IMG/VR virus record: IMGVR_UViG_3300021387_000118 | Location: 77,168 to 141,167 of that record | DNA: 64,000 nt | Source of the DNA: a virus | Direction: 5' to 3' (one strand) | In this document: piece after piece, positions 24,506 through 43,644 of the stretch | Position numbering within the stretch: position 1 is the first letter of the stretch | How the letters are laid out: each line of letters opens with the position of its first letter | Translations under genes and position numbers: made by a program | The notes under the pieces: generated by a model | Database searches by the model: none | What the model was told of the DNA's origin: nothing | The model's input: the letters and a program-made list of their open reading frames with translations, nothing else

Positions 24506-24688
24506 TTAAAACGTCAAGACATCAGTATAATTCATCTTCATATCTTGAGATGAAAACTGAATTTTATTTGGTTCATTTATAAAAACATATTTGTTGCCAG
24601 ATTTTGGCAGTTCTTGAAAACCAGCATGGCGCAAAATTTCTGCGGTAACTGGATCAGTTGTATTAATAAATTGATTTTTTTGTTTCAT
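24506..24688 (-). CDS. small hypothetical protein
   Basis: 60-aa ORF. Confidence 0.3.
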   Translation of the reverse strand: MKQKNQFINTTDPVTAEILRHAGFQELPKSGNKYVFINEPNKIQFSSQDMKMNYTDVLTF

Positions 24689-24706: not shown

Positions 24707-25162
24707 TTAATTCTTTCTTTTGCTAAATGTATCTGTCTGTGAATGACAATTTGGACAAAGAAACCTCAAATTTTCAATCCTGTTATCATTATGAACACCA
24801 TTTATATGATCTAACTATAATGATAGCGGACGATCATTCCACATACCAACATTGCCACAAATGGCACATTTATATTCCAATAAATCATTATTGATAATTC
24901 TAATCTTTAATCTTGATAAATTTTGATATGTAGAATTTTCAACTAATATCTCATCTAATGAATATTTTGTATTGTTTGGATTAAAGCTACCAGAGAAGTG
25001 ACTTGTCGAAATGTTTAATTCCTAACACCTTTTTTTGATTAAGTCGTAAGGATATCTGCCATTCTTCGTATAACCCAATTTTAAGACACATTGCAAATAC
25101 GAAGTAGAATTACTGATTAATTCTTTAAATTCATCATCTGATAATTTATATACTTTATTCAT
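24707..25162 (-). CDS. HNH homing endonuclease (two in-frame TAG)
   Basis: LDHINGVHNDNRIENLRFLCPNCH motif. GGAGGTAAAAGC SD ahead of the ATG. TAA at 24707, in frame. Confidence 0.7.
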
Positions 25163-25268
25163 GCTTTTACCTCCTATAGTAAAATATCCTAGAATTTAAA
25201 TGTGAGAGGAGAGGTCTAGGATCACCTCTCATACATGGTTAATTACTCCATGTATTTCTCACATTTGA

Positions 25269-25555
25269 CAGCCCATCTCCGATTCGAACGGAGGTTACCT
25301 CCTTCAGAGGGATATCACGGTTTTCTTACTACATTATGTTTCCATAACAGCATCTGCTTTGTAGTCTGGATCATCTCTTCAACTCAGAGAGTTGGGAACT
25401 ATATGATCTCTGCGCATTTAAATTAGCTCAGGATTGCCATATGAATAAAATCACTTAGGGTTTTCCTGAATTAGGTTCCTTTACATTTATGTTTCACAAC
25501 ATAACGCTCCACAAATAATGAGAGACCGGTGCACTAGCCGCTGTGCTAATGGGCT
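25269..25555 (-). tRNA. intron-split amber suppressor tRNA (anticodon CUA after splicing); exons 25555..25521 and 25324..25269
   Basis: 5' exon reads AGCCCAT-UA-GCAC/AGCGGCUA/GUGC-A-CCGGU-CUCU. 3' exon reads AAA-ACCGU, a 23-nt variable arm, CUCCG-UUCGAAU-CGGAG and AUGGGCU-G. Acceptor is 7/7 complementary, with a canonical D-arm and T-arm. Splicing gives the anticodon loop CUCUAAA. Confidence 0.6.
25325..25520 (-). ncRNA. group I intron (R3, 196 nt) inside the tRNA anticodon loop
   Basis: P1 pairs exon CUCU with IGS GGAG (25510..25507), giving the U.G pair at the splice site. R element CAGAGAUCAUAU (plus 25401..25412). S element AGAUGAUCCAG (plus 25366..25376). Terminal G at 25325. Confidence 0.6.
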
Positions 25556-25565
25556 ATAAGAAAAA

Positions 25566-25588
25566 AGAGCAGGATAATATCCTGCTCT
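25566..25588 (-). terminator. hairpin terminator after the portal gene
   Basis: 9-bp stem AGAGCAGGA/UCCUGCUCU followed by a U-run on the minus strand. Confidence 0.5.
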
Positions 25589-25594
25589 TAAAAA

Positions 25595-27226
25595 TCATTT
25601 ATCATCAACTATATTTCTAGTCCTTTCTGCACTGCCAGATATCTCATCGTCACTAACGCGATTTCTTCCGGCAGTAGAATCATCATTGCCAGTAGATTTA
25701 CGAGTAGCAGTGGTATCCCCCCATGCAGTATTATAACTAGATAATAATGGCACCATTATATCCTTAATTCCAATAGCATTTTCAAAAATAATCTAGCAAT
25801 ATGCCTCATATGGTGTATATCCTTGCGCTTCCAAATAAACCAAAGCACTAGATCCAAGCGTTGCGGCCTATCTAGTTGCCTCTATAAAAGTATCTTCATT
25901 GTACCATGTTTGTCTCAGTATACTAAATAAATAATTCTCACTGATATTCTTATCTATATAATATTGAAAATTATTCTCTAAACGCTCTACAAGAAGATAA
26001 GCATAAGCGCTGTCATTATTTAATGAATGTTTAATTCCAGCTGCGGAATTTGCATCAGCAGAAGAAACAACTGGTTCACTAACACCAATAGTCTTATATA
26101 AGTTTCTAATACTATTATTTACTATGTCAGTAGTGTCAGCTGTAGAATTCTAGTTAAATGAGACAGTCTCCAAAGACAGTCCTGGTAAAAGTCCAACTCC
26201 TACCAAATCAGGTACTATTGACTGCACCGCATCTTTATAAACAGATGCAATCTCTTCTGATACTTTAAAGTCATCTACTACATCACCATCTATAAGCGGA
26301 ATTCCAAGAAGAAGCAGCTTATAATTGTCCAATTCCGTCTTGTCCGCAAGGAGCTAGGAGTAGTCAATTATATCCAATAAATCAATAAAACTAGAACTTA
26401 AAAACGGTAAAGGATTTTCAAATTCATCGTCCAAAGAAGAGAGGAGAGTAATAGTATATTCACTCGGTATTATAAACCATCTAGTTTCTTGTTTATTCGA
26501 AGAATTCTGATATTCTCTCCATGCGTCCTAAAAACATTGATGCCAACATCCAGACGTATCTCCATTAATACCTTCCACAAATATTACATTTTGACCAATA
26601 CTAAAATATGTAAGATCAAACGCAACGATCCATTGTCCAGCTTCGTTCTTACCTCTTATCTTGCAATACTCCATTGGTAGCATATGCAAGAACATACCGT
26701 CTTCGCCATTATCATAGACAAACCCATAATAAACTCCATCTCTAATCGCAATAGCCATAGCCACTGCAAACTCTGTTTTGAAATTAAATTTATTTATATG
26801 TTTTAATACATTTTCATACTCCTTGATAATCTTATTAGTATTTGGACTCTTTGCAAATTCCATTTTCTGAACTAAATTATAGTTGTATAATGGCATTGTT
26901 GCATAATATAAAATAACCTTTTTATATAACGTTGACATACGCCATAAGAATCTCGAAACACCAACTATTTGATTTCTATAAGAGTATGGATTCGTCAAAT
27001 ATTGCTTGATTAACGATTTCGTATATTGAGTGAAACTCTGAGTACGATTTCTTGCAACATCCTGTAAAATCAATTCCTTTAATTTTTCGGTTTTTTTAAA
27101 ATCAAGGGCCGTAGGTCTACTGACAACCTCTTGCTCATCATTTTTCTTTTTTGGTAGTAAAGACTATGTCATAACTTTACTACGCTCATCAATCAGCGCC
27201 TCTTGCGCTTTAGGTTTTCTAGGCAT
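25595..27226 (-). CDS. portal protein (544 codons, several in-frame TAG), TGA stop
   Basis: ATG at 27226 with AAGGAGG as SD. ORFs 26528..27073 and 26150..26332 share its frame. TGA stop at 25595..25597. Sits between terminase and head genes. Confidence 0.6.
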
Positions 27227-27245
27227 GAAGCGCCTCCTTTCTTTA

Positions 27246-29003
27246 TCAACAATTATAAGTAGTAGAACGGCGAGGTGGAGTTATAGAAATATATTTAAAT
27301 AACTAATTTGTTGATTGCTTTGGTCTTAATTTTAATTCTAACTAACACATACACCAATAATTATAAGCAATAGAAGAATAGCGGTCTTTTCGCATACCAG
27401 ACTATTCTTTAACTTTAATATTACCGTTCTTAACTTCGTGATCTAATTTAATTAATTCATATTCTGCCATAGTGGTTTGTAAATATGGCATTTTTATATA
27501 AGCTCGATCTGTTGGAGAAAGCTTAGAATAAGGCTTATAAGATTTTGAAATCTCTTCTTCGCATTCCTAATCTGAAATAAGAAAACTGATTCTTCCATTT
27601 TGTATCCCGTTTCTTAGTAAAACACATATTTCATTATTAAAATTGGCACCCGCTTTAACGGACCAGACCACTTTATTGGCATCTTTAACCTTACAGCGAA
27701 TCGCCATATCATCATCATTAATACATGTTAATGCCTTATAGGTTTTGCCAGTTGAAGAATCGTATTGATCTTTACAAATATAGTCAAAGATTCCAATTCC
27801 CAAACCTCCTGTATCAACTACTAAATCGGTACATTTATATTCATAAAAATAGCGCATAACAATAATTCCAAGTTCATCTGTTGTCAACCCTTCAAAAGTC
27901 TCTCCATAAACAAAATTTGAATGATAACTTGTATCATCCTATTGGATTGCGCTATTAATATACAAGGCAGCAGCATCGTTTTTCTTTTTCTTTGTTGAAC
28001 CCATAAGAGCAACGTCAACAGAAAGAATTCTTTTTTCTGTTGCAGAAACATCAGGAATTCGAATTTTATCATTATAGAATTTTAATGGTAGTAAAGCATT
28101 TTTGATTTTTCTCTATTTATTTATCTCTTCCCACTTAAAGAGATTATCACCATCATCTCCGACCCACATGCATTCCATTTCCATAGTAAAAGCGAGTTCA
28201 TTAAAGTCCGCCTCTGATTTTTCATCCATTACTTGCTCCCTAGATAAGAGTCCTTCCTTAATACTCAATTGATACGGCAATCCACAACAAAAATATCTTT
28301 TAGAATCATCAAAGAAATTAGCCACATATGCTTGTAGTTTTTTCCATGCCCACGAACTTTTAAAATACGCACTAGACATATATATTTCCTTATTTCGTTC
28401 TTGAAGATGTGAATATTCTGGTTTATTTAAATAACCAGGTTGTCTGGGGCTAGTTAAAAACTTCCTAATAACAAGATTCAAAATAGTTTCATCAACCATG
28501 CGGAATTCATCAACAACAATTATATTTGCCCTAGCGCCACGAGCATTATCGGTACTAGTCCTCGTTGTAATCCAAGATCCATTTTTAAACATGATGATCG
28601 CATCGTTCTATCCTATATTACATTTCTCAATTTCGGTACATAATATAGGTGACATTTTCATTAGTTCATCCTATATTTTTAAAAGCACACCATTAGCCTG
28701 TTTAAGAGTTCCAGAACAAACAACAATCTTACTCCCAGGATATAAAATACATCTTACAACACAGAAGAGCGCAGTAAGCCATGATTTTGACATACCACGA
28801 GCAGCAATGAACATAAAATAATTATAATGCATCATTGCCCATATTAATATTTTCTAAAATAATTTTAAATGTATTCCAAGTACTTCTTCCACAAATCTTT
28901 CTGGATTTGCTCTATAATAAGCTGCTCGAAAAGCAACCGTATTCATTATTTTCTATTCCTTATCCTGAGCAATTTCGCGAATAGTTTTTTTTCTTTCTTT
29001 CAT
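27246..29003 (-). CDS. terL: terminase large subunit (586 codons, at least 6 in-frame TAG), TGA stop
   Basis: Walker-B-like IIVVDEF and nuclease-like VVDTGGLGIGIFDY. ATG at 29003 overlaps the upstream TAA. Fragments 28113..28592 and 27567..27887 are in the same frame. Confidence 0.65.
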
Positions 29004-30061: not shown

Positions 30062-30304
30062 TATCTCATCTCCTTTTAATCATCATAAATAAAAAAAATC
30101 GCCGTCATATATCCAACGATTAGTATTGACAATCAAGAATGGCATTTTCTCCCCTCCAATAACGGGAAATCTAGGTAACGATCCTAGCTTTTGCGTTTAA
30201 CAGCCGCACGTACTTCCAATGTACTAATTTCCCGACAAAATTTAAAATAGAGAGGGCAGTAGCCCTCTCAAAAAGTATAGTGTTGATAATACTATACTGG
30301 AGAC

Positions 30305-30865
30305 TCAATCAAAGACATACTCACAAAGCAAATCATGAATCATATCATCTGTAAGTTTCTTTGTTCCTCTATAAGTAAACTTATAATGATTGCCATCGGA
30401 GTGATCACAAAAAGTAAATCCATAACCATCATCGGTCTTGCAGACACATGCATTACTATCAGCAGCAGTATCATCTGAATCATGCACGTCATCAAATCCA
30501 AATTCTGTTACCCCGTGAGAAGAATTTGTTTCAAGATACTGGTCTATAAAATCCTCCTCAACAAATGCGTAATCTGTCTCCATCATTAAATAGCAGTCAT
30601 GAAGATCGTTATATATTTTGCCAGTATATATTCCTCCGTCTTGTAATTCAAGATACCACGCATCATCATAGCCATCATAATCATACTCATCTAATTGACC
30701 ACCAACAAAACGAACATCATCAACCATTTTGATAATAGTATTCATGGCTTCTTGAATTATTTCATAATAACCAACAACTACAATTTTTTTGTCGCTATCA
30801 TTATCATATAAATCGATAATGTCACCAATTATTTCATATATATCATCTACAACAATTTTTTTCAT
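30305..30865 (-). CDS. acidic hypothetical protein
   Basis: 186-aa ORF with no TAG. TGA stop. Confidence 0.45.
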   Translation of the reverse strand: MKKIVVDDIYEIIGDIIDLYDNDSDKKIVVVGYYEIIQEAMNTIIKMVDDVRFVGGQLDEYDYDGYDDAWYLELQDGGIYTGKIYNDLHDCYLMMETDYAFVEEDFIDQYLETNSSHGVTEFGFDDVHDSDDTAADSNACVCKTDDGYGFTFCDHSDGNHYKFTYRGTKKLTDDMIHDLLCEYVFD

Positions 30866-30884
30866 TTATTTCTCCTTTTAATCC

Positions 30885-32081
30885 TTAATCAAATTTAATA
30901 TTATAGATACATTCCAGCCCATAATTCTTAGAAATAACAAAAGGAGATTGTTCTGCCTTACCAATTAATCGTCTCGATAAAGCATATTCGTCTGTTCCAA
31001 CAAAAGAACCAGATTGGATTACTTTTGTGTTTCCACTAGTTGTCATAGCATTAAAATGTCTATGTCCAAGAACAATTATATCTGGAATATATCCTAACAA
31101 CTTCGTCATGTTTTTTGTAGCATTATCCATGTTATCTAAATCACCATGTACAAAAACAATCTTTTGATTATCTACGTTTACAACAACAATCCCAGGATCA
31201 ATCTCATTATCATAGCAATGAATATTAGGGTAGTTTTGAAGTTTGGATCTCACGAACGGAACAACGAAATTTTCGATATTCTCATGTGCCAAACTGTCTT
31301 CTTTTTTCGCATTCATACGACCATGATTTCCTGGAGCAACATAGAATTTAACAGAATTAAACATTGTACTTAAAATCATTAAAAAATCACAAACGTAATC
31401 TGTTACTATCAAAAACTGATCAATTAAATCCTGGTTATTTTGTAATCTCAAATTATTATGTATTTGACCACTACACAGTTCACTACCTAAAACAATAACA
31501 TCTTCAGCACCATGTCTAATCGCAATATCATGAATTCTATCAAGATAAGCATTTAACATCTGTCGAAGGATATCTATATCATAATCATTCCAACGATTAT
31601 GAATCTCAATACCGCAGTGGATATCAGTTAAAGGTACGACAAGAGTAGTAGCACCACGAATTATTTCTTTATGACTAGCCGGATCATATTCTAATGGTCG
31701 ATTACTAGCAGCCTCTTCAATTGAACGTACAAACAATTCAAGATAAGATTCTTTCCTAGCTTCCTCACGAATTAGCTTATTGTATTGATTTCTTTCATCC
31801 CGTAGTTTCACCTTTTCTTTTTCGAGTTCTCTACGGAGTTCAATTAAATCATCCTCAGTATTATCAATCATTTCATTCTGAACGGCCTTAATACTTGCGT
31901 ATTTTTTCCTGTAAGCAGACTCTCCCCATTCCTCACCGTCACTACGACAATTCTTATTAAATACATTTGCTAATTCGTGCCATGTTTTATCTATAATCCC
32001 ATCTTCTTTCATAGTTCCAAGACGCTTTACATAATTCAATTCTGTTTCTCCAGGCTTACGACTAAGATCAATATAAGACAT
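30885..32081 (-). CDS. metallophosphoesterase, SbcD/Mre11-like nuclease
   Basis: Motifs DIHCG, GNHG and GHRH of the calcineurin-like phosphoesterases. Confidence 0.55.
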   Translation of the reverse strand: MSYIDLSRKPGETELNYVKRLGTMKEDGIIDKTWHELANVFNKNCRSDGEEWGESAYRKKYASIKAVQNEMIDNTEDDLIELRRELEKEKVKLRDERNQYNKLIREEARKESYLELFVRSIEEAASNRPLEYDPASHKEIIRGATTLVVPLTDIHCGIEIHNRWNDYDIDILRQMLNAYLDRIHDIAIRHGAEDVIVLGSELCSGQIHNNLRLQNNQDLIDQFLIVTDYVCDFLMILSTMFNSVKFYVAPGNHGRMNAKKEDSLAHENIENFVVPFVRSKLQNYPNIHCYDNEIDPGIVVVNVDNQKIVFVHGDLDNMDNATKNMTKLLGYIPDIIVLGHRHFNAMTTSGNTKVIQSGSFVGTDEYALSRRLIGKAEQSPFVISKNYGLECIYNIKFD

Positions 32082-32086
32082 CTATA

Positions 32087-32305
32087 TCAATCCTCCTCAA
32101 ATTCATCGGTAAGATCTTCATCTGTTTTAAGTGCAAGACTGAGTTCAATAGGCTGACCAGCAAACTTTTCAAAGCACTTTGATACGGGGATCTCCATTTC
32201 TTCCTTATCTCCATTAACATAAGTGATTATCTTACCATCATTAGAAAGTTCACCCTTAATACTAAACTTCTTTGTTGTTACCTTATTATACTTATAATTC
32301 TGCAT
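32087..32305 (-). CDS. hypothetical protein
   Basis: 72-aa ORF. Confidence 0.35.
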   Translation of the reverse strand: MQNYKYNKVTTKKFSIKGELSNDGKIITYVNGDKEEMEIPVSKCFEKFAGQPIELSLALKTDEDLTDEFEED

Positions 32306-32334
32306 TTTTATTTTCTCCTTTTAATCCTTAATTA

Positions 32335-32652
32335 TTATTTACTTGACATTTTTAAAGTGACTCCAGAATTTTGCTTTGACCGTTGAAAAGTATTATTTTT
32401 TTCAAATAACGTAATAGCCATAGCTTCTTCTCTGGAAAATCCTGCGTCTTCCAATGATTTGACTTTTTTCGCATATAATTTGGAATCAACCTCAAACCAC
32501 TCATCGTTATCAACTAAATCTTTATAAACGCTCAAAAGTTCTCTGCCAATTGTATAAATTAATCCCTTATATTTCTTAAAAACATCCGATATTATCAGAT
32601 TTAAACTAGTTGGATCTTCCGATAAAAGATCCAATAACGTATTTAAATTCAT
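32335..32652 (-). CDS. hypothetical protein
   Basis: 105-aa ORF. Confidence 0.35.
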   Translation of the reverse strand: MNLNTLLDLLSEDPTSLNLIISDVFKKYKGLIYTIGRELLSVYKDLVDNDEWFEVDSKLYAKKVKSLEDAGFSREEAMAITLFEKNNTFQRSKQNSGVTLKMSSK

Positions 32653-32691
32653 ATCCTTTTAATCCTTTCATATATAAAGAAAGGATGAGAA

Positions 32692-33303
32692 TTAGAGTAT
32701 CTCATCCATATCACAATCTTCACCAATTATCTTATGAACAATTCCAAAACTTTTTGCTTTGTCTGGATACATCCACATCTCTTGTTCATAAACACTATCG
32801 TAAAACTCTGATGTCATAGTAGTTTTAGAAAGTATAAACGCTTTAGCTCGTTCTTCTTGAGAATCAAAAAACTCAACGTTATTCTTTGCTTTACTACGAG
32901 AGTTTTCGATTAATATATCCCCTTCGTGCTGCAAAAAGGCGCTATCTTTGTACGAGTACCTAACGTGACATGCAAGATAGCAAAGATATGCGGCACTAGC
33001 TACAAGGTCAAGAGCAATTCCCCAGATTGGAGTTTTACTGGCTTCAATTACGTCAATCATATTGTTTGCATTAAATACATTTCCGCCAGGAGAGCTAATA
33101 AACAGCTTAATAGGCTGTCTGCTTTCAATGGGCAAGTTTTTATCTTCCTTATTCCATTTAAGAATATACATAATATAATCTTCAATTACATTCTCACTGA
33201 TTTCATCATTCATGAACAATGTTCTATCCTGAAGAAACTCTCTATATAATTCATCAAAAGCACTATCATTATTATTTCCAGCAATAGCAAGTAAATCAGC
33301 CAT
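32692..33303 (-). CDS. ClpP-like serine peptidase
   Basis: ISSPGGNV and DLVASAAY resemble ClpP (S14) motifs. Confidence 0.4.
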   Translation of the reverse strand: MADLLAIAGNNNDSAFDELYREFLQDRTLFMNDEISENVIEDYIMYILKWNKEDKNLPIESRQPIKLFISSPGGNVFNANNMIDVIEASKTPIWGIALDLVASAAYLCYLACHVRYSYKDSAFLQHEGDILIENSRSKAKNNVEFFDSQEERAKAFILSKTTMTSEFYDSVYEQEMWMYPDKAKSFGIVHKIIGEDCDMDEIL

Positions 33304-33309
33304 ATGTAA

Positions 33310-33627
33310 TCACTCCTTTACCGTTGTTAATTCCGCAATCTTCTTGTTTAATTCATCAATCTGTTTTTTAAGATCAGCTGTTTCAGATTGTTCACGAGAT
33401 TTCTTATTTTCATCAATTAATTCCGCGAATACTTTTTGAAATTCATCTGTATCCTTAAACACAAACACACTTCGTTTTCCATCTGGATCTGACCTGTCCG
33501 CCTTAACATCAATAATTTCCTGACCCTTATGCAAAAGCTGTCGTGCAATTTGTGCCTTTCTAATAACTTTACCCTTAATCTCAGGTTCCATATTTTCAAA
33601 CGAATTTTTTGTTGTAATAATATTCAT
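33310..33627 (-). CDS. coiled-coil hypothetical protein
   Basis: 105-aa ORF. Confidence 0.35.
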   Translation of the reverse strand: MNIITTKNSFENMEPEIKGKVIRKAQIARQLLHKGQEIIDVKADRSDPDGKRSVFVFKDTDEFQKVFAELIDENKKSREQSETADLKKQIDELNKKIAELTTVKE

Positions 33628-33642
33628 ATTGTTATTCTCCTT

Positions 33643-34476
33643 TTAATCCTTATTTTGAAACATGTTCGCATAAAGCTGACTTGTTTCACTTCGTACATCA
33701 GCATCTAACGCAATACATGCAAATAGTTTGTTACCTTTTAATTCATTACACATTTTAACTAACGGATTATTAGACGAAACATCTAATAATGATTGTTTAA
33801 TATCTCCATTCCAAAAAATTCTTCCCTCTTCACCAATTCGAGTTCCGATTAATCTAATTTGTTTCTCTGTCAGATCTTCAGCCTCGTCGATGCAAATTAT
33901 GCAGGAAGGATAGGTGGTCCCTTTCATATATGTTGGAATATTAAATTCAATAACACCTTGGTCTTGCAACCTATCTACTTCATATTCTTGACCCTCAAAT
34001 TGCTGTTTTATAGGTAATGACCAAACAGAATGTTTTTCTTCAAATGTACCTTTCAGATATCCCTCGGATCTACCTTCTCCCCACGGCTCGCGAACAAAGC
34101 AGATTTTGGACTGCCACCCTTTTTCTCTTACGCAGTAATCAGCCATCCTAGTAACTAAATAACTTTTTCCTCCACCAGGCACTCCAAGAATTGCACATAC
34201 AGTAATATCTTTATTATTCAACATATCTAATGCGCATCTCTGTAATGCGTTTTTACCTTTGATAATTTTCGATGGTGGAAGTTTTAAACTAACAAACTTT
34301 TCACCGTCAAACCGCATTTCCTTTTCTGAATTATCATCCGTGTTTTTGATAATTAAATATTCATTACAATACCAATCATCAAGACTCATATCATTCATAT
34401 AGTCATTTATCTCATTAGTATTTCCAGAAATTGACTTATAACCTTTATATATAGACAAATCCTCACTTCCCCTCAA
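33643..34476 (-). CDS. P-loop NTPase (PhoH-like)
   Basis: Walker A motif GVPGGGKSY. Confidence 0.5.
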   Translation of the reverse strand: MRGSEDLSIYKGYKSISGNTNEINDYMNDMSLDDWYCNEYLIIKNTDDNSEKEMRFDGEKFVSLKLPPSKIIKGKNALQRCALDMLNNKDITVCAILGVPGGGKSYLVTRMADYCVREKGWQSKICFVREPWGEGRSEGYLKGTFEEKHSVWSLPIKQQFEGQEYEVDRLQDQGVIEFNIPTYMKGTTYPSCIICIDEAEDLTEKQIRLIGTRIGEEGRIFWNGDIKQSLLDVSSNNPLVKMCNELKGNKLFACIALDADVRSETSQLYANMFQNKD

Positions 34477-34672
34477 CAGTATATGTATGGTCTTTCCTAT
34501 ATTGATTCAATAATTTTACTGCTTTAGGACTAGTTGTTAAAAAATAAGTCTTCGCATTTTTTCCATGACTCCTAGAACTCATATGAACATCATGCCCAAG
34601 TCCGGCCTCACGGATCATAAAAGCCTCTGCTTTTGTAATATCTATCATATATATTGATTCCTTTTCTTTCAT
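34463..34672 (-). CDS. small hypothetical protein
   Basis: 69-aa ORF. Confidence 0.3.
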   Translation of the reverse strand: MKEKESIYMIDITKAEAFMIREAGLGHDVHMSSRSHGKNAKTYFLTTSPKAVKLLNQYRKDHTYTVEGK

Positions 34673-34687
34673 TTTATTTACGCAACA

Positions 34688-34713
34688 AAAATAGGAGAGT
34701 GGTATACTCTCCT
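34688..34713 (-). terminator. hairpin terminator after tRNA-Pro
   Basis: 8-bp stem AGGAGAGU/ACUCUCCU followed by a U-run on the minus strand. Confidence 0.4.
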
Positions 34714-34740
34714 TAAAACTTTACGCATAATGTTTTTTAG

Positions 34741-34812
34741 TTGGGATGACTGGAGTCGGACCAGCCTGATCTAGTTCCCAAAACTAGGGCCTAACCGCTA
34801 GGCTACATCCCA
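34741..34812 (-). tRNA. tRNA-Pro (anticodon UGG)
   Basis: Hand-folded cloverleaf. Acceptor UGGGAUG/CAUCCCA, D-stem GCCU/AGGC, anticodon stem CUAGU/ACUAG, loop UUUGGGA, T-stem GCUGG/CCAGU. Confidence 0.6.
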
Positions 34813-35077
34813 AAAAATGTCGGGTGAGTGCACGTAAACTCACGCTTCTACTTCTGGATTTCACAAACTTTATTATGGAGTTATTCCTCCGGTGTTCCAT
34901 ATAATAGCTATATTTTCTTCTCGGCTTTTTAACTCTAAGAGTCGCTACCTTGCCTACCGACATAAATAACTAGACACTATGTTAATTCAATCTTTCTTTG
35001 AAACAGTTCTACGCATTAACCTATATTTGTTCATATAATATAATTTTTTGCTGTTAGTGTCTAAATAATATTTCCAA

Positions 35078-35350
35078 TTAAAGAACTGCTTCCTTAAATT
35101 TCTTTCCAAACTTTGCCTTTGGAACATTTTTTGAAGCAACCATCATCGTCTCACCTGTGCGAGGATTACGACATTCTCTAGCATTCTGTTCCCTTACTTC
35201 GATACTAAGACCATTAAAAAGCTGCACCTTGCCAGTATCCTTAAGCGAGTCTACGACAGTATCTTCCAAAATCATATAAAGTTCCTTCGCATCTTTCTTT
35301 GTAATATGAGCATTATTCGCAAACGCATCAATAAGTTCTTTTCTATTCAT
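35078..35350 (-). CDS. HU/IHF-family DNA-binding protein
   Basis: 90 aa with an RNPRTGE arm motif. Confidence 0.7.
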   Translation of the reverse strand: MNRKELIDAFANNAHITKKDAKELYMILEDTVVDSLKDTGKVQLFNGLSIEVREQNARECRNPRTGETMMVASKNVPKAKFGKKFKEAVL

Positions 35351-35600
35351 ATATATTTTTCTCCTTTTAATCCTTAATGTTTAATTTTATAACATAAGCG
35401 CTTATTAGGTGTTTATTCCCTACCACACCCAAAGACTGTTCAATTGTTATATTAAATCATGATTCCGTATTTATTAACACCGCACTCGGCAATAGCGGTG
35501 GAGAGGATATATGATAATACATCAAAATCTCCCTCATATAACGGATTTTAGCACAAGTGTAAAATTTGGTAATATATAAAGAAAATTTGCGCTTCATATT

Positions 35601-36527
35601 TTACGATGCTAAACCGTTTTTAAAGCAATTTAAGAACTTTTCTTTATTTGTCTTATATAAAACATTCAACATTTTTCTTGTATACTTTGTTGCGCTTTTA
35701 TATAAATACTTAGTATTTGTTTTGCCGTCTATTCCCAAAGATGTTTCGATTAATCGATAAATAGTTGCATTGCTGATCTTCATATGAGAAACACGTTGAA
35801 TAATTTCTTCAGTCTTTTCTAGCAGAGGATATATTTCCATATCATCATCGTCATGCCATAATTGAAGAAAATGTTTTACATAATTATCATATTCTTCTAC
35901 GGCCTTTCTAATTTTTCCCATCTGAGTTGCTTTAGGTGTTCCAGGTGGTTTATCTGATAAAAACGAATATGTATCAACAATGTTATCACGATCCGCACCC
36001 TGTATTTTATCTAATGCATCTTGTAACCAATTCATTGGACATATCAATTTATCATCAATCCTTCTTTGAACTTTATCTTTATCCTTTTTTATTTCAGACT
36101 GTGGACGTTCCTTCCCATTCTTTGTATAAGCAATTTTATGGGTCCATTTCATAAATTTAGGATAATCCTTTTTCCTATTCATGCATGGTTGTTGCCTTAT
36201 GCGTTGAATGTCATTGTTGACATCCACGGAATATTCGCGTTTACACCCATCGATCGCGAGCTGGGCACATACTGCCAATATCACGGTGTTTTCATAAAGT
36301 TGTTTACAGTCATTATCAATTTCACCGTTTGCAATTTTAGTCCAATAATAACTCTGACTTAATTGGGCGCTATCAGAAGATCCACCAATCGCTTTTTGAG
36401 CACCTTGCATTGCAGAGTCCATTTTCGCATAGTCAGTCATCGTATTATTATAAATGACTCCACTTTCCGGTACCTCATTGACAACAGTAGGATATTCTTT
36501 ATATGCTATTTTCGCAGACTTAACCAT
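35601..36527 (-). CDS. hypothetical protein, possible 3' exon of a split replication gene
   Basis: 308-aa ORF. Its frame is open from about 36588, immediately after intron core R4. Confidence 0.4.
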   Translation of the reverse strand: MVKSAKIAYKEYPTVVNEVPESGVIYNNTMTDYAKMDSAMQGAQKAIGGSSDSAQLSQSYYWTKIANGEIDNDCKQLYENTVILAVCAQLAIDGCKREYSVDVNNDIQRIRQQPCMNRKKDYPKFMKWTHKIAYTKNGKERPQSEIKKDKDKVQRRIDDKLICPMNWLQDALDKIQGADRDNIVDTYSFLSDKPPGTPKATQMGKIRKAVEEYDNYVKHFLQLWHDDDDMEIYPLLEKTEEIIQRVSHMKISNATIYRLIETSLGIDGKTNTKYLYKSATKYTRKMLNVLYKTNKEKFLNCFKNGLAS

Positions 36528-36539
36528 CTCTGGTTGATT

Positions 36540-36820
36540 AGTAACAAAATTAAAATCTGAATCAACATTTTCTTATATCCTGGCTCTTTATCCAGGAACT
36601 CTTCTTTTTCGAAGAGGATGAGACTATATCATGACCCTCGTTTAACGTTAGGCGAATGCTATCCTATATATAGCAGTCTTGGGATTTCGTGTCTGGATTA
36701 TTGTTTGTCTACTCACCAGTTAGTCGTTTGACCTTCTTGCTACCTCAGTGACTTTCACAAGCTTGGTTCCGAGTTTATTCATTCTCGGAATTAACCCAAT
36801 ATTTTTTGAACTGAGTTTCC
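36540..36820 (-). ncRNA. group I intron ribozyme core (R4)
   Basis: R element GUCAAACGACUAACUGG (plus 36717..36734) and S element GAUAUAGUCUC (plus 36622..36632). Begins at the UGA of the upstream 596-aa ORF. CUGAG-GAAA-CUCAG hairpin at the 5' end. Confidence 0.5.
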
Positions 36821-38611
36821 TCAGAACCGACCCTGATTATTTGAGTCCATACCATTCATACGTGCCTGAACATCTGTATGAATGCAATTTACAGCCATAA
36901 TATTGTTACTAAATTCAAAATATTTCTCCATTAGAGGATGTTTAACATTTTTAAAATATCCTAGATTATTACTACTATTGTGAGGATTACGTATACCACA
37001 CAAATATTCTCCATCACAAAATCTAGGAGTATATACTTGAATAACTCCATCATCCTGCAAAAGAGTTGGATCTTCTTCCCATGATTTCCCAACAGTATAT
37101 AATAATAAAGCATATGGATTTCCGCACACCGTCAAGTTATCACCGTGAACCGTAATTTTACCTTTACGAAGTTTTGCCACATAATCATTAATAATTTTTG
37201 ATTTATCTACTTTCCACATTTTGCTATTTTCGAAATCATTATTCCAGGCATATAAATCTGCAAGCATTTCATAGTGATTAACAGCAGTAGCATTTTTTCG
37301 TAAAAATTTTTCAAATTCATGATTGTTAGATTTTAATAAATTTACATAGTCAATACTTGTCTGAGCAATCTTATGTATATCATCAGATGTACAAGGTAGC
37401 GTGTTAATCATTTGATATGACATCTGTTGAACATCATTTAATTTTGACGGATGATCCGTTTTGACAATGCCCCATGTGCAATTATCTGCTCTGACATGAT
37501 TGCACCAATAGTCATAAGCAAGCGGCAGAGTACCACCTATAAGATCAACAAACTTTTTAAATTTGGTTGCATTATCAGTAGTAATCATTTTTATGTTCTT
37601 TGCCAAATGCCTATTGCCGTACATATCAGTAATTTCATAAGTATCATAATCTATATTATTATCTTGACAATAATCTTTGATAAACTGTTGAATACGAGTT
37701 CTAAACGCACAGGCTTTAAAAAAGTGATTTCTTAACAACGCCATACCATTGCACCAATCTGGCATAACAGTTGTTTCAATTAATGCCATTCCGTCCCATA
37801 AGGTATTCTTTACATTTGTTTCTTCTCTATGAACAGTACACCTTTTTCTTATTTCTTTTTCGCCATTTTTTAATGTTACCTCATAATCTTCGGCCCTTAC
37901 TATGTCAGCTATAGTATTGAAAAAACTATCTTTATCTTCCAGGATCAAAACATCTTCAACAGGAATGTTAATCGTTCCCTCTATCGCAGAAGTTGATAAT
38001 GGGGCATAGGCGGAAATTTCCACGATCTTTGCCCCATGATCTGGGAGAAGCTTTCCAATCCCCATAGTTAACCAGTTATATGCTTTATCATATAATTCAT
38101 CTCTAATAAACATGACACTACCTTGTTTCGCCTTAGATGGATTACGATAAAGCATCTTATAATAGATTGTTTCTTCCGTTACTTCGCCAGTTTTATTATC
38201 AACTTTATTATATGTAATATGGGTCCCTTGTTCATAAAAAATCCGGCGTATATCATCCTTTGATAGTTTCTTATATAAGTTCTTTTTAGATTTTACTTTT
38301 TCTTCCAAAGTATCAATTAATGCAAGCTGCTCCTGATTATCTTCAGCCTCTTTCCTCATTGAAGCAATATGACTTAGTTCTTCTTTGTAACTTCTCAAAC
38401 CAAATTGAAAGTCTATGCAGATAATATCTCTAGTAGACTCATCTTTTTTATCTGTTTGCATGCCATTATTTTTTAGCCAATGAGTAAATAAAGAATGGTG
38501 CAACATAGCTTCAGTATAGTCATACCTATCTCTGATGCCAGTATTTTTGCCGTAAACAGTAGCAGCTTTATAGTTTCTTATTTTCCATCCATATTGTCCT
38601 ATAGAGATCAT
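36821..38611 (-). CDS. large replication-associated protein (possible TOPRIM/primase-like), candidate 5' exon
   Basis: 596 aa with an IEG...LEDKD pattern. The UGA stop sits at the intron R4 boundary. Confidence 0.35.
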   Translation of the reverse strand: MISIGQYGWKIRNYKAATVYGKNTGIRDRYDYTEAMLHHSLFTHWLKNNGMQTDKKDESTRDIICIDFQFGLRSYKEELSHIASMRKEAEDNQEQLALIDTLEEKVKSKKNLYKKLSKDDIRRIFYEQGTHITYNKVDNKTGEVTEETIYYKMLYRNPSKAKQGSVMFIRDELYDKAYNWLTMGIGKLLPDHGAKIVEISAYAPLSTSAIEGTINIPVEDVLILEDKDSFFNTIADIVRAEDYEVTLKNGEKEIRKRCTVHREETNVKNTLWDGMALIETTVMPDWCNGMALLRNHFFKACAFRTRIQQFIKDYCQDNNIDYDTYEITDMYGNRHLAKNIKMITTDNATKFKKFVDLIGGTLPLAYDYWCNHVRADNCTWGIVKTDHPSKLNDVQQMSYQMINTLPCTSDDIHKIAQTSIDYVNLLKSNNHEFEKFLRKNATAVNHYEMLADLYAWNNDFENSKMWKVDKSKIINDYVAKLRKGKITVHGDNLTVCGNPYALLLYTVGKSWEEDPTLLQDDGVIQVYTPRFCDGEYLCGIRNPHNSSNNLGYFKNVKHPLMEKYFEFSNNIMAVNCIHTDVQARMNGMDSNNQGRF

Positions 38612-38628
38612 CTCCCATCATTATATAT

Positions 38629-39378
38629 TCATTGTTTAACATCAACAATGTTATTGCTATTGTATTTTGCCAAAGTTCCACGAACAAGACTGCGGATTAT
38701 CATATTGCTTTCTTCCGAGTTGGGAGAGTTGTAAATATTATTACAGACAATATCTGTAACGCATGAGTTAAACTCAGATGGCAACATGTTACCTTTCATC
38801 CTGTTACATGTTTTATGAGCCGGATATAAGTTGTCCATATGATTTGTTCCGCCACGACTCAACGGAATCAAGTGTTCCAATGTCCAATCTTCATCAGCAA
38901 TAGGTTTGCCGCAATAGATACACACATTGGATTTTTTTGCCACAGCACATTTTGTGACTGGACTAATTTTAATCCTTTTACTAGAATCAATATCTTCCTG
39001 AAGCTGTTTCTTAAACACTTCGGGATGTTTAAATCTTCTGAAGTTGCTATCAATCACAACTGGGTTGTCAATATTCTGAAATGAACCCCCATGTTCTTCA
39101 ATGTAATCATATGCGGCGTTAACCGTGGCGAATGTCATCGCACCTTTATAGCTAGAAGTTATTTCTCCATCTTTGCCGACAAAATACTGTTTTGTTGAAA
39201 CAACGTAACCTTTGTTCTTTGAATTACCATGTTTAAAAACCATATGGTCGGGATGGACGCTAACGTACCTTTGCGCCTCTGACTGTTTCATATGAGTAGC
39301 AGCAGAAGGACTAGTATAAAGGTTGCCGAGTCCCTGGATAAACATGATTTCATTTGATATACGATAATTGACAGCCAT
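38629..39378 (-). CDS. HNH endonuclease
   Basis: CIYCG...EHLIPLSRGGTNHMDNLYPAHKTCN motif. Confidence 0.7.
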   Translation of the reverse strand: MAVNYRISNEIMFIQGLGNLYTSPSAATHMKQSEAQRYVSVHPDHMVFKHGNSKNKGYVVSTKQYFVGKDGEITSSYKGAMTFATVNAAYDYIEEHGGSFQNIDNPVVIDSNFRRFKHPEVFKKQLQEDIDSSKRIKISPVTKCAVAKKSNVCIYCGKPIADEDWTLEHLIPLSRGGTNHMDNLYPAHKTCNRMKGNMLPSEFNSCVTDIVCNNIYNSPNSEESNMIIRSLVRGTLAKYNSNNIVDVKQ

Positions 39379-39412
39379 TATAATACCTCCTTTAATAAAA
39401 AATAATGTTACG

Positions 39413-40330
39413 TCAATTATTATTGCTTAATTCATCATCGATCATTTTTACCAAATTTTCATAACCATTTGTGGAATAAAGGATTGCAAAACCTTTATTG
39501 ATGTTTTTGTAGTTGGTTGATTTTTTTGTTGTTTCAACTAAGTACTTAAGATTCTGGTGGGAATTAAACAGTTTATACAGCTGAGTAATGTCATAATTAT
39601 TTGCCACCTTTTTCCTGGCAAGACGAGCGGCGAGTTCTCTAATCAATTCAGGACATCTCATAGCATCTACAGAATTGAAGTCACGTTCAGGACTGTCAAT
39701 GGCGAATGATGCCATCAGATGCTGAATAGCCTGTTTGAAATAACCCATCAAAACATCACTATTGGAAACCATATTAATAGCTGAAGTCTTGATTTTGCGG
39801 GTTCTCCTCAATTCATATACATCAATGCCGGAGATCTTCTTCATGGTATCATATACTTTATTATATGTATCCTGATGCGCAAGTCCTGATAAAACCGCAA
39901 GACTCCGTACCTTTTTATTATATTCTTCCCGCCACTCATATTTCTCCTTGTCACTAAGCTTGCTTACAAACTGGAACTTTCCGGCAGATTCTGCTTCAAC
40001 ATCTGATCTGGCATTAGCAATATTAGATAAGGAATCTTTTAATTCCTTAACGGAGAAAACGATATTGTCAATCTGGGCAACATTTGGAACACTCGTCTTA
40101 ATACCACAAATATCTACTCCCATGTTAGAGATATTCGAGGAAATTTTTTCGAGGATTTTATTCTGTTCATCAAAACTTTTTTTCAATTTGTCTGTAATTG
40201 CTGTTGCTAAATTGTCAACATTAAGAGAAAGATCCTTATTGAATTTAACAAGATTATCTTTAAGATCACTAGTAACAGCAGTAAAATACATTGCAATTTC
40301 TTCATTGGTCAGAGGTGTTTTATTATCCAT
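39413..40330 (-). CDS. hypothetical protein
   Basis: 305-aa ORF. Confidence 0.4.
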   Translation of the reverse strand: MDNKTPLTNEEIAMYFTAVTSDLKDNLVKFNKDLSLNVDNLATAITDKLKKSFDEQNKILEKISSNISNMGVDICGIKTSVPNVAQIDNIVFSVKELKDSLSNIANARSDVEAESAGKFQFVSKLSDKEKYEWREEYNKKVRSLAVLSGLAHQDTYNKVYDTMKKISGIDVYELRRTRKIKTSAINMVSNSDVLMGYFKQAIQHLMASFAIDSPERDFNSVDAMRCPELIRELAARLARKKVANNYDITQLYKLFNSHQNLKYLVETTKKSTNYKNINKGFAILYSTNGYENLVKMIDDELSNNN

Positions 40331-40362
40331 AGTATTATTCCTTTCTAATTAATAAATGATAA

Positions 40363-41592
40363 TTAATAGTCAATGACTACTTCATCATCAATGATGGCAA
40401 CATCCGTTATGCTTGCTTTTTTAATTACGCGATCTAGCGAATCGATCATAGATTTGCAAGTGTTGTAGAGACGCTGGTATAGTATATTGTTGTTCACACA
40501 TTGTGTGAGAGAATCGCCGTTTTCAATTGGAGCAATAACCGTATTTTGAAACTCAACGCATTTCTTACAAAAATCAAATACAATATCTGAAGTGACGCAA
40601 TTGTCATATGTTGGCTGCACTTCCTTGCGGTATGTTTCCATCTGAAGTTTGATACTATCTCGTTCATTCTTAAGAGCTGTAATTTCATTAGAACGAGAGA
40701 GAAGATCATCTTGTAAAACATCTACCTGTCTTGTAAGATCGGCAATTGTCTCATATGCTGAATTAAGCGTTCCGGTTAATTTATTTTCGGTTTTATCATC
40801 ATCCTCTTTAATAGCAGCCTTAATAGCATTCAGATCATCATCGGAAAGTTTTTCAATAGTTACTGGAGACTGTAGCTGCGCTTTGAGAGATTCTTTTTCT
40901 TTAACAAGTTGTTCTTTCTCATCAGAAAGAATTTTGACCTTATTAATATAGAAATCAATTTCTTTGTTGCTAACTTTCCCATCTTTCTCAGAAAGTTGAT
41001 CTGCAAGTTCTCGTTGCTCATCTTCGGATAATCTCTTCACAATCGCTCTTGCCGTAGTTGCTGTAACATTGCCCGTGTTAATCAAATCCTGAATTTCTGG
41101 GATCATGGTGGCAAGTTGCTTGTAGTTCTGAAGAGACTGCCTGGTAAGTCCAAGCTGGGCGGCGAGGTCTGATTCGGTAGTAGGAGCTTCTTCAATCAAA
41201 GTAAAATTATTTGACTTTGATTTTCTATCACCACCATGTTGAATTCCATAAATCCGTTCTAGTGTTTGGATGCATCGCCCGAACTTTACCGGATTTGGGT
41301 TGCCGATGCCACGCTGGCGAATGTTCGTTTCTATTAAATCTTTTAGCATCTGCTCATCAGAATTATACTGCTTGGTTTCGGTCATTACCTCCTTAATCCC
41401 AAGTTCTTTACATGCTCGAATTCTTTGATGCCCAGATATTATCATTTTATTCTGATTAATAATAATTGGTTCAATAACGCCGGAAGTTTGAACGGAGCGA
41501 AGAAATTCATCCCAGGCTTCTCCGGTAATATCATCAAAATAATAATCATTCTGCGGATGCGGTACAAGATCTGCTACTGGCAATAATTGCAT
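40363..41592 (-). CDS. ParB/Srx-like N-terminal domain protein with coiled-coil C-terminus
   Basis: IINQNKMIISGHQRIRAC motif. No ParA partner nearby. Confidence 0.55.
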   Translation of the reverse strand: MQLLPVADLVPHPQNDYYFDDITGEAWDEFLRSVQTSGVIEPIIINQNKMIISGHQRIRACKELGIKEVMTETKQYNSDEQMLKDLIETNIRQRGIGNPNPVKFGRCIQTLERIYGIQHGGDRKSKSNNFTLIEEAPTTESDLAAQLGLTRQSLQNYKQLATMIPEIQDLINTGNVTATTARAIVKRLSEDEQRELADQLSEKDGKVSNKEIDFYINKVKILSDEKEQLVKEKESLKAQLQSPVTIEKLSDDDLNAIKAAIKEDDDKTENKLTGTLNSAYETIADLTRQVDVLQDDLLSRSNEITALKNERDSIKLQMETYRKEVQPTYDNCVTSDIVFDFCKKCVEFQNTVIAPIENGDSLTQCVNNNILYQRLYNTCKSMIDSLDRVIKKASITDVAIIDDEVVIDY

Positions 41593-41757
41593 GTAAACCT
41601 CCTTACTGAATACAGTATTTAATAAATGATATTTAGTTATTTAGAATAATAATTGATCTGACGAATCTTGTCAAGCACAATTTATTTGTTAAGAAAATCT
41701 TAATAATTAGGTGAAGTGCAAAATCTGTTAATATGGCGAAGAAATATTCCCTTGAGG

Positions 41758-41862
41758 GATTGTGAGTGCACCGCACTTTAGCGCACTGAAGTGACTGTGA
41801 GTGCACCTTTTTTGCCATTTAGGGGACTGTGAGTGCACCTCACGAAACTACAAGTTTCGTAA
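41758..41862. repeat. iteron array (3x GAYTGTGAGTGCACC) plus hairpin
   Basis: Copies at 41758..41772, 41793..41807 and 41825..41839, spaced 32-35 bp. Half-site AGTGCA at about 41714. Hairpin ACGAAACU/AGUUUCGU at 41840..41862. Confidence 0.55.
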
Positions 41863-41937
41863 GTATATTAACAAAAATTGACCATTTTTTTGGTTGGGAT
41901 CCTTCTATGTCTTACCGAGTAGTGTCTTAATAAAGTC

Positions 41938-42504
41938 TTAAGAATTATTCTGTCTCATTAATAGTTCTTTCCAGCCACTTGAATTATAAAAAGAATGAAT
42001 TGTTTTATTGATATCATTACCTCTAAAATAAATATATGGATTAACTGTAAATACTGTTTGGTTAGGAACATCTTCATATAAAATATTTCCAGATTCATGT
42101 TTGCCGATAACACCCTTATGCTGAAGAGCAGCCATTAATTTTTTAGCATAATCATATTTGTATCCATGAATCTCGGCAAGTTCTTTTATGGATAATATTT
42201 TACTTCTTCTATCCATTGTTTTTCTTATTATACAATCTTCAAATGATACATGAGGAGTTAAACATATTGCAAATTTAAATTCTGGAAGAGTCAGATATTT
42301 TTCTAATAATGGTACTACTTCATCATATATTTTTACAAACGATTTATCTCTATTAAAGTCTATTATTCTTGAGTCTATATAATCTTGTTGTTCTTTACGG
42401 CGAACAGATAACTGATCTCCCTGATAGTATTGATCGATGATTTCTCCGGTAGATGTACTTATTAATACTCTTTCTGGGGTTTTTTCTATTTGATTTTCGT
42501 TCAT
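41938..42504 (-). CDS. Rep-like/regulatory DNA-binding protein next to the iterons
   Basis: 188-aa ORF immediately upstream of the iteron array. Confidence 0.35.
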   Translation of the reverse strand: MNENQIEKTPERVLISTSTGEIIDQYYQGDQLSVRRKEQQDYIDSRIIDFNRDKSFVKIYDEVVPLLEKYLTLPEFKFAICLTPHVSFEDCIIRKTMDRRSKILSIKELAEIHGYKYDYAKKLMAALQHKGVIGKHESGNILYEDVPNQTVFTVNPYIYFRGNDINKTIHSFYNSSGWKELLMRQNNS

Positions 42505-42707
42505 TATTATATTCCTTTCTTTGGTTATTTATACCTATAACTGACGTTTGTCTTTTACTACATCCAAAGTAGTAAAAATATTTTTTTGATAGATGACGAT
42601 GTAAAACAGTTGAAAATATATTATATCATGTTAACTAGTGCCAATGGTTTAATAATTCATATCCGCATTTATGTTATGATTGTAACGGCGGAAATAGCTG
42701 TATCATA

Positions 42708-42738
42708 CGCATTAATATATTGGCCGCCTTTGTAAATT
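42708..42738. repeat. direct repeat flanking the GIY-YIG gene (copy 1)
   Basis: ACGCA..TGGCCGCCTTTGT. Second copy at 43645..43675. Confidence 0.45.
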
Positions 42739-42766
42739 CAATACTGTCGTATATGAATTTACTAAC

Positions 42767-43519: not shown

Positions 43520-43644
43520 AATGAATACTCCTTAATAATTAATAATTATGAAATACTATCATATTAATTAGTATCTGTCAATTTCAAACTTATAATATGT
43601 ACGCACAAAGATTTCTTATGCGGCGGCAAATGACTTTATTTTAC

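Follow-up and report, generated by a model that had tools for sequence, protein, structure and literature searches.

It is already known that homing endonuclease genes (HEGs) occur in phage tRNA clusters and that group I introns interrupt the anticodon loops of tRNAs; collaborative homing and the idea that recoded stop codons delay a nuclease have likewise been described before. SegB, a GIY-YIG endonuclease of the tRNA cluster of phage T4, cuts inside tRNA genes and drives the inheritance of the tRNA region (PMC2330249), and collaborative homing has precedents in F-CphI, which works with a psbA intron of cyanophage S-PM2 that lacks an open reading frame (ORF), and in T4 MobE, which works with the I-TevIII intron (PMC3984707). 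Borges et al. (bioRxiv 10.1101/2021.08.26.457843) described a pattern of standard-code early genes and recoded late genes in phages, detected a TAG suppressor tRNA in only 40% of TAG-recoded phage genomes and, for the TGA-recoded Agate phages, in which an enrichment was seen, proposed that recoded stops delay an intron endonuclease to late infection. The subject of the present analysis is an HNH homing endonuclease gene containing two in-frame TAG codons (24707..25162, minus strand, as are all features of the locus described below), located behind an intron-split gene for a tRNA with a CUA anticodon, tRNA(CUA), in a 64,000-nt stretch of the virus record IMGVR_UViG_3300021387_000118 (positions 77,168–141,167). 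This whole stretch is referred to as the window, and the numbers from L001 to L121 designate the related contigs and phages compared with it. The locus is likely to represent a functional free-standing HEG that occupies a 'slot' behind tRNA(CUA), uses TAG as an ordinary glutamine codon and is mobile by collaborative homing.

The HNH gene and its TAG codons

The ORF starts with an ATG at 25162, 7 nt downstream of the ribosome-binding site (RBS) AGGAGGT, comprises 151 sense codons down to 24710 and ends with a TAA at 24709–24707. Its in-frame TAGs are codon 47 (25022..25024), the position of which is variable among homologues, and codon 116 (24815..24817), directly 5′ of LDHINGVHNDNRIENLRFLCPNCH, where the homologues contain Gln (LSLQLDHING) and the L010 homologue also has TAG. 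A Pfam profile search with TAG read through clearly indicated a match to PF01844 over residues 99–142 (27.4 bits, with a cut-off of 21.4), and the profile phrog_10822 'HNH endonuclease' matched residues 1–151 (E = 1.1e-47); 6193 database homologues were found at E ≤ 1e-10. The frame is unbroken across both TAGs, since profiles and homologues align through them, with no gaps at positions 47 and 116 in an alignment of 46 homologues and with Gln as the consensus at position 116, and translation under code 15, in which TAG is a sense codon, yields an intact 151-aa HNH protein. The earlier note, which had described an HNH endonuclease in this place, with one TAG before the motif and one earlier, and had made its claim hinge on the continuity of the frame, was right on these points.

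In the protein, an N-terminal three-helix domain (aa 9–48) is joined through a linker to a Cys4 HNH domain at the C terminus (aa 96–141). Residues C99, D118, H119, N131, C136, C139 and H140 are invariant among 55 sequences and C102 is kept in at least 90% of them; the AlphaFold 2 model, with a predicted local distance difference test (pLDDT) score of 90.4, contains strands 116–119 and 132–135 and a helix 137–140, forming the ββα fold of HNH (His-Me finger) nucleases with the catalytic and Cys4 zinc residues in place. Foldseek matches to the model were weak (all E ≥ 0.03), and most of them, including the best two, were HNH nucleases. A PDB sequence search with the protein revealed no match, an NCBIfam search gave only weak partial matches to ZorE and IscB, and the matches found by a blastn search of the locus against cultured phages were confined to the HNH domain. 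The ratio of nonsynonymous to synonymous change (dN/dS) is about 0.1 in the clade of closest homologues, and between its more distant members the proportion of nonsynonymous differences (pN) is 0.18–0.29, while that of synonymous differences (pS) is saturated; the HNH protein is therefore under purifying selection. Judging by its sequence, the ORF is an intact gene of an HNH homing-type endonuclease, with a predicted nuclease activity.

The surrounding genes indicate how the TAGs are read. The minus-strand ORFs of the region 1–30080, the late module, become long once TAG is read as sense, and contain as many as 41 in-frame TAGs in a 1708-aa ORF, 10 in the terminase gene TerL and 6 in the portal gene; under the TAG-sense reading, no ORF of the window ends in TAG. 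In codon-level alignments with relatives, the TAGs of the window stand opposite CAA or CAG 34 times and opposite TAG 15 times, the next best residue being Thr (7 times). Essential late genes with TAG, the correspondence of TAG to Gln, the lack of TAG terminators and the presence of a tRNA(CUA) are together the features of TAG-recoded late genes (code 15). The ORFs of 30305–43531 are nearly TAG-free, with the exception of one TAG in 30885–32096, and the boundary in code usage is sharp, at about 30080–30305, around tRNA-Asn (30162–30234). The early genes of this gut phage use the standard code, and its late genes read TAG as Gln; Borges et al. described such a pattern. Since its TerL is 42% identical to YonF of SPbeta, the window belongs to an SPbeta-like phage, the host of which is presumably a member of Firmicutes. 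The same TerL matches both phrog_15503 and phrog_26582, each labelled 'unknown function'; this double match suggests that standard-code gene calling appears to split the TerL of such phages into two PHROG families.

The TAG content of the HNH gene is that of its neighbourhood. It contains 2 TAGs in 151 codons (1.32 per 100), and the late module without it contains 110 TAGs in 8128 codons (1.35 per 100); TAG makes up 40% of the Gln codons in the window HNH gene, 26% (14/53) in nine HNH genes of the clade and 30% in the late genes, so that, for both measures, no enrichment of the recoded stop of the kind reported by Borges et al. was found. The TAG sites vary among the homologues (codons 4, 6, 24, 81, 110, 116, 142 and 155), the residues being Gln elsewhere, and 78 of 80 more distant relatives, which belong to standard-code phages, have no in-frame stop at all. 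GIY-YIG, HNH_2 and PD-(D/E)XK genes located behind other tRNA(CUA) genes contain in-frame TAGs as well. With a TAG density equal to the late-gene average and with variable sites, the dependence on suppression is therefore not special to the nuclease, and it is simplest to suppose that CAA/CAG and TAG replace each other freely when a gene has come to reside in a recoded late module.

It could be supposed, instead, that the TAGs are kept by selection as a dedicated timer, so that the nuclease is made only under active suppression and early damage is limited; we regard this as unlikely. At least one in-frame TAG is present in all ten clade members examined, but with about 1.5 TAGs per gene this outcome is expected in approximately 8% of cases by a Poisson estimate. 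A TAG at codon 6 is common to five homologues (L011, L095, L096, L097 and L098), the codons of which differ at 31–51% of identical residues, so that some selection for an early stop is conceivable; CAA at codon 24, however, is conserved equally in the same five genes, and the window HNH gene has no early TAG. The enrichment in the Agate intron endonuclease, for which Borges et al. proposed the same logic, has no parallel here in either TAG density or Gln-codon share, and the TAG sites differ between homologues.

Two further claims of the earlier note bear on this issue. The first, that synthesis of the nuclease depends on the spliced tRNA, stands insofar as TAG decoding is required and the only tRNA(CUA) gene of the window is the intron-split one, and it loses its specificity insofar as the requirement is shared by every late gene. 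The second, that expression tied to active recoding may limit host or self damage, is not supported insofar as it implies an arrangement special to the nuclease, given the unremarkable TAG density, the variable sites and the clade share of Gln codons stated above; the rationale of self damage is, moreover, probably unnecessary, because an intron interrupts the tRNA gene of the phage itself and, in this tRNA family, the HNH gene occurs only beside split alleles. The HNH gene needs suppression as all late genes do, with no sign of a dedicated safety switch, and the need for TAG suppression is an expected consequence of code 15. The TAGs would have been acquired as Gln codons while the HNH gene resided in recoded phages; full-length nuclease would appear only after the tRNA(CUA) had been transcribed, self-spliced, processed and charged, as would the terminase, the portal and other late proteins, and the dependence would be a by-product of the code rather than a dedicated switch.

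The intron-split tRNA(CUA) gene

The tRNA(CUA) gene is composed of a 5′ exon (25521..25555), which ends with CCGGTCTCT (C34 U35), a putative group I intron of 196 nt that lacks an ORF (25325..25520) and is placed within the CUA anticodon, between U35 and A36, and a 3′ exon (25269..25324), which extends from A36 through a long variable arm, the T arm and the acceptor to the discriminator G73. ARAGORN classifies the exons, once joined, as tRNA(cta), and the tRNA 3′ end is separated from the HNH ATG by 106 nt, in agreement with the distance of about 100 nt given in the earlier note. Intron-less alleles, including those of L002 and L007, read CACCGGTCTCT|AAAACCGTGATATCCCTCTGAAGGAGGT and are identical base for base at the junction; the splice junction is therefore fixed at U35|A36. 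The intron-less tRNA(CUA) alleles include the L007/L002 type (GCACCGGTCTCTAAAACCGTGATATCCC) and the L003 type (ACAGCAGACTCTAAATCTGTAAGC).

A local Rfam search by E-value revealed a match to the group I intron family RF00028 at 25532–25353 (43.3 bits, E = 9.8e-10). Homologous introns are found at the identical tRNA site in L009, L011, L013, L096, L097 and L121, and that of L009 scores 50.5 bits and reaches the RF00028 gathering score. The window intron is too short to contain an endonuclease such as the 151-aa HNH protein. RNAalifold, run on five of the introns, predicted covarying conserved helices, which did not compose the canonical group I fold, and this result was not used as evidence. A search with Rfam at gathering thresholds found neither the intron nor the split tRNA in the window; ARAGORN with default settings misses the split tRNA, and with introns allowed it finds the gene, misplaces the splice sites and calls it Leu(aag). 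Standard tRNA and Rfam scans miss the window suppressor because the intron splits the gene. The locus thus provides a concrete reason why suppressor tRNAs may escape standard scans in recoded phages, and intron-split tRNA genes may explain part of the suppressors that have remained undetected.

The spliced suppressor tRNA has a length of 91 nt and is class II-like, with a 23-nt variable region, a G73 discriminator and an A1-U72 pair. Despite this long-arm architecture, the TAG sites align overwhelmingly with Gln, the amino acid with which a synthetase would have to charge it. In L121 (2606–3000), a tRNA(CUA) of the L003 type (compare L003 6805–7008) contains, likewise at U35|A36, an intron homologous to that of the window; at least two tRNA(CUA) lineages have therefore been colonised by it. 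An unusual sequence that resembles a tRNA, with CTCTAAA as its anticodon loop, is located 5′ of the HNH homologues in L010 (about 3830–3900) and L095 (2304–2374); it was not called by ARAGORN, and the Rfam tRNA model gave 33.2 bits in L095. This sequence may be a non-canonical suppressor.

Mobility of the HNH gene and its association with tRNA(CUA)

A comparison with collinear relatives indicates presence/absence polymorphism of the cassette. In L001, the portal of which is 89% identical at the amino acid level, 26 bp separate the portal stop from the next small ORF, versus about 930 bp in the window; in L003 (portal 97% identical), the same junction sequences enclose a GIY-YIG gene together with another tRNA(CUA), which has no intron. 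The 112-kb contig L121 has backbone genes that are 78–82% identical to those of the window at the nucleotide level and an HNH ORF that is 98.9% identical and contains the same TAGs. The switch in identity falls at the HNH RBS and stop codon, and the ORF alone was therefore transferred recently. Where the contexts are unrelated, nucleotide similarity of the cassettes begins at the tRNA and ceases at the HNH stop codon. The gene is a separate ORF with its own RBS outside the intron, occurs sporadically in collinear relatives and has moved horizontally, as free-standing HEGs do. The putative nuclease gene is evidently dispensable and mobile, and the nuclease, the intron and the tRNA appear to behave as separately mobile parts.

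The HNH clade (63–99% amino acid identity) has been found in ten contexts (window, L010, L011, L013, L095, L096, L097, L098, L099 and L121), and in all ten the gene lies about 110 nt 3′ of, or within, a tRNA with a CUA anticodon, while the flanks of the cassettes differ widely (after the portal, after an aminotransferase gene, after tube genes). In L099, the HNH ORF is situated in a peripheral loop of a tRNA(CUA) intron sharing core sequences with the window intron, a layout which corresponds to the classical intron-encoded arrangement. Within the tRNA family of the window, counted after removal of duplicates, intron and HNH gene are both present in 4 cases and both absent in 15, the intron alone is present in 1 and the HNH gene alone in none (Fisher p = 0.001, a value affected by ascertainment bias and shared ancestry); L096 and L121 are two further cases with both, beyond this table. 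Loci composed of tRNA(CUA) followed by a 74-aa MKDYY ORF display neither intron nor HNH gene in L106, L111 and L119, the intron without the HNH gene in L009/L108 and both in L011, L096 and L097. Of 80 relatives at no more than 54% amino acid identity, 54 are preceded by a tRNA on the same strand, the end of which lies no more than 350 nt upstream (median distance 94 nt); the homologue in Pakpunavirus LCK69 lies 92 nt after a tRNA-Gln, and a homologue in an Enterococcus phage is annotated as hegA/F-TflIV. The predicted nuclease family is widespread in phages and resident immediately 3′ of tRNA genes.

Several arrangements among the more distant relatives deserve mention in their own right. In the standard-code phages L040 (2172–2455) and L090 (2170–2453), a group I intron in a tRNA, scoring 62–63 bits and exceeding the Rfam gathering score, lies directly 5′ of an HNH relative without in-frame TAG or TGA, and L061, L063 and L069 possess the same array with an intron-less tRNA-Leu(UAA) and an HNH gene. 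A phage tRNA array of L072 was found to contain a ROOL RNA (836–1470; 318 bits), and about 1 kb further downstream there follow a tRNA(CUA) with a long arm and an HNH relative.

These associations are consistent with the following mechanism. In a mixed infection, a rival phage with an uninterrupted tRNA(CUA) gene would have this gene cut by the HNH nuclease, in the DNA of the anticodon loop or close to it, and repair from the genome carrying the HNH gene would copy this gene, often together with the intron and the tRNA, into the rival; in the carrier genome, the target would be split by the group I intron and the carrier would be protected, which would amount to collaborative (trans) homing. 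The cleavage site, the immunity conferred by the intron and the timing of expression are steps that we infer.

Several points weigh against the reading of the locus as a collaboratively homing HEG with ordinary Gln codons. The target site was deduced solely from co-occurrence and from the single intron-encoded homologue in L099, and the co-occurrence carries the biases stated with the Fisher value. Near-identical HNH genes (window and L121) stand beside two types of tRNA(CUA), the anticodon stems of which differ and which have only CTCT|AAA in common; the recognition sequence would therefore be short or degenerate, or lie elsewhere. The HNH gene is also found beside an intron-less tRNA(CUA), only where the tRNA type is divergent (L098, L010 and L095). 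The intron of the window, at 43.3 bits, is below the Rfam gathering score of 50. Suppressors are possible outside the 64-kb window, and the array of L002 demonstrates suppressors located elsewhere in related phages. The TAG shared at codon 6, discussed above, belongs to these points too.

The main rival to the homing mechanism holds that the HNH gene is mobile and the tRNA flank is merely a tolerated slot, a safe harbour, with the cut site in the neighbouring backbone. The slot is bounded by conserved RBS-containing junctions, and identical junctions, CTnTAGGAGGTAAAA upstream and AATTAACAAGTAGGTGATAT downstream, enclose the HNH or GIY-YIG genes of L003, L121 and the window; the exchange between the window and L121 involved nothing but the ORF, the same HNH gene stands beside two tRNA types and the neighbourhood is common to four HEG families, all of which would suit a mere harbour. 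On the other hand, the HNH clade tracks tRNA(CUA) into unrelated contexts (portal, aminotransferase and tube genes), one homologue is encoded within the tRNA intron (L099), the HNH gene is missing from all 15 intron-less alleles of the window tRNA family, and SegB, the HEG from a phage tRNA cluster that has been studied by experiment, cuts within tRNA genes (PMC2330249). With this evidence, a cut site in the backbone seems quite improbable.

Decay of a standard-code HNH gene killed by two nonsense mutations would agree with the fact that under code 11 the ORF falls into pieces of 46 aa and shorter, and with the public 46-aa gene call P0122, which is the HNH protein cut off at the first TAG (codon 47). 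The neighbouring essential genes are nevertheless TAG-rich, their TAGs align with Gln and no ORF ends in TAG; the dN/dS value of about 0.1 and the intact catalytic and zinc residues signify purifying selection, and L121, a phage diverged by 20%, has a copy that is 98.9% identical and contains the same TAGs. A pseudogene is very hard to reconcile with these data and was rejected; P0122 rather exemplifies how standard gene calling truncates such recoded genes. A role as a packaging accessory, comparable with the HNH proteins of cos-type phages, suggested by the position in the packaging and head module, one gene from the portal and two from TerL, is the least credible proposal and was also rejected, because the HNH gene is not a conserved partner of the terminase and portal in all relatives, being absent in L001 and replaced by GIY-YIG in L003, with portals 89–97% identical, because its relatives reside in tRNA arrays and not beside terminases, and because it possesses, at the N terminus, an additional helical domain such as site-specific HEGs typically have.

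An extension of the collaborative-homing reading can be offered tentatively, as a possibility that we consider rather doubtful: the intron and the HNH clade may constitute a selfish system specialised on the amber-suppressor tRNA genes of TAG-recoded phages, spreading tRNA, intron and HNH gene by homing. If this were true, homing would spread the very determinant of the alternative code and shuffle it among phages, TAG codons would be affordable for the element because the decoder would always be supplied in cis by the homing site, and split suppressor tRNAs would account for part of the approximately 60% of TAG-recoded genomes without a detected suppressor.

The remaining parts of the locus can be described briefly. 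Upstream lies the portal gene (25595..27280; phrog_2739, E = 7e-71), with its 6 in-frame TAGs, which forms the upstream edge of the backbone, followed by an intrinsic terminator hairpin (25565..25589), 9 nt 5′ of the tRNA. No sigma-70-like promoter was found between this strong terminator and the tRNA. Downstream, a 60-aa backbone ORF (24506..24688), with its own RBS directly after the HNH stop, makes up the other edge of the HEG slot and is also present in L001, a relative without the cassette. The HEGs with in-frame TAGs found in related phages, a GIY-YIG gene (L003 7009–7737), a DUF4379+HNH_2 gene (L005, reverse strand from 4074) and a PD-(D/E)XK+NUMOD1 gene (L006, from 11199), sit behind tRNA(CUA) genes or a Sup-Thr array; with the window HNH gene included, the niche behind tRNA(CUA) is used by four HEG families.

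The spacer, or 5′ leader, between the tRNA and the HNH gene (25163..25268) contains a Y-shaped element (25190–25268), followed by TAGGA and the RBS TAGGAGGT. The element consists of an outer stem and two hairpins (minimum free energy −35 kcal/mol, z = −4.9), with compensatory changes in 14 of 21 pairs across 9 loci, and also precedes the start codons of HEGs in L003 (6897–6975, GIY-YIG), L010, L011, L013 and L095–L098; in L005, nucleotide similarity to the window spacer extends up to the HNH_2 gene. A search in Rfam revealed no match for the element, which may be a processing or translational control element. The possibility of a tRNA-processing ribozyme of the theta type, similar to that of hepatitis delta virus (HDV), was rejected, since the three-way junction topology and the lack of a match to the HDV family in Rfam argue against it.

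Comparison with known systems

A hotspot of mobile elements exists at the suppressor tRNA by which the code change is enacted, with an intron at U35|A36 and four endonuclease families behind tRNA(CUA), and the natural variants display all the stages predicted by the collaborative-homing model. Suppressor tRNAs are the first step towards recoding, and the locus suggests how they could move between phages. The paper on phAss-1, dealing with recoded gut phages, makes no mention of a tRNA intron or HEG, and the searchable literature yielded no description of the combination of a code-defining suppressor tRNA split at U35|A36, a dedicated HNH clade, free-standing or intron-encoded, and natural intermediates.

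Group I introns in the anticodon loops of bacterial-type tRNAs are represented by those of Synechocystis tRNA-fMet (with I-Ssp6803I), tRNA-Leu(UAA), tRNA-Ile and tRNA-Arg. The window resembles the I-Ssp6803I system in having a group I intron in a tRNA anticodon loop, and differs from it in that I-Ssp6803I is a PD-(D/E)XK enzyme encoded inside the intron in a bacterial host, while the nuclease of the window is of the HNH type, lies outside the intron and belongs to a recoded phage. The endonuclease of the Agate phages (Borges et al.) and the window HEG have in common an ORF with in-frame recoded stops and a late code switch, but the Agate ORF resides within an intron of an early gene and shows a statistical enrichment of the recoded stop, whereas the window HNH gene is located in the late module, displays no enrichment and stands beside the suppressor tRNA. 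In recoded gut phages, suppressor tRNAs are adjoined by theta (HDV-like) ribozymes (Kienbeck et al. 2024), and in the window a structured RNA likewise abuts the 3′ end of the suppressor tRNA; unlike the nested double pseudoknot of these ribozymes, the window spacer has a three-way junction, no HDV-family match and travels with HEG ORFs.

With the collaborative-homing systems, the locus shares an intron and a HEG that vary independently among relatives, and the intron-encoded version, the predicted end product of the process, is present in L099. Unlike the F-CphI and MobE systems, the host gene is a tRNA and not a protein-coding gene, the HNH gene accompanies two types of tRNA(CUA), and a cut site at the intron site is a deduction. 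The locus also resembles T4 SegB and the HNH endonucleases F-TflI, -II and -IV of phage T5, since the window HNH gene is likewise an ORF of its own on the tRNA strand, follows a tRNA gene and is absent from close relatives; T5 hegA/F-TflIV and the window HNH protein have the catalytic domain in common (aa 84–149, 42% identity), but not the N-terminal domain. In distinction from SegB and the F-Tfl enzymes, the tRNA neighbouring the window HNH gene is the amber suppressor that defines the phage's own code and is split by a group I intron, and the nuclease gene, the cleavage activity of which is here only predicted, contains the very codon read by the adjoining tRNA.

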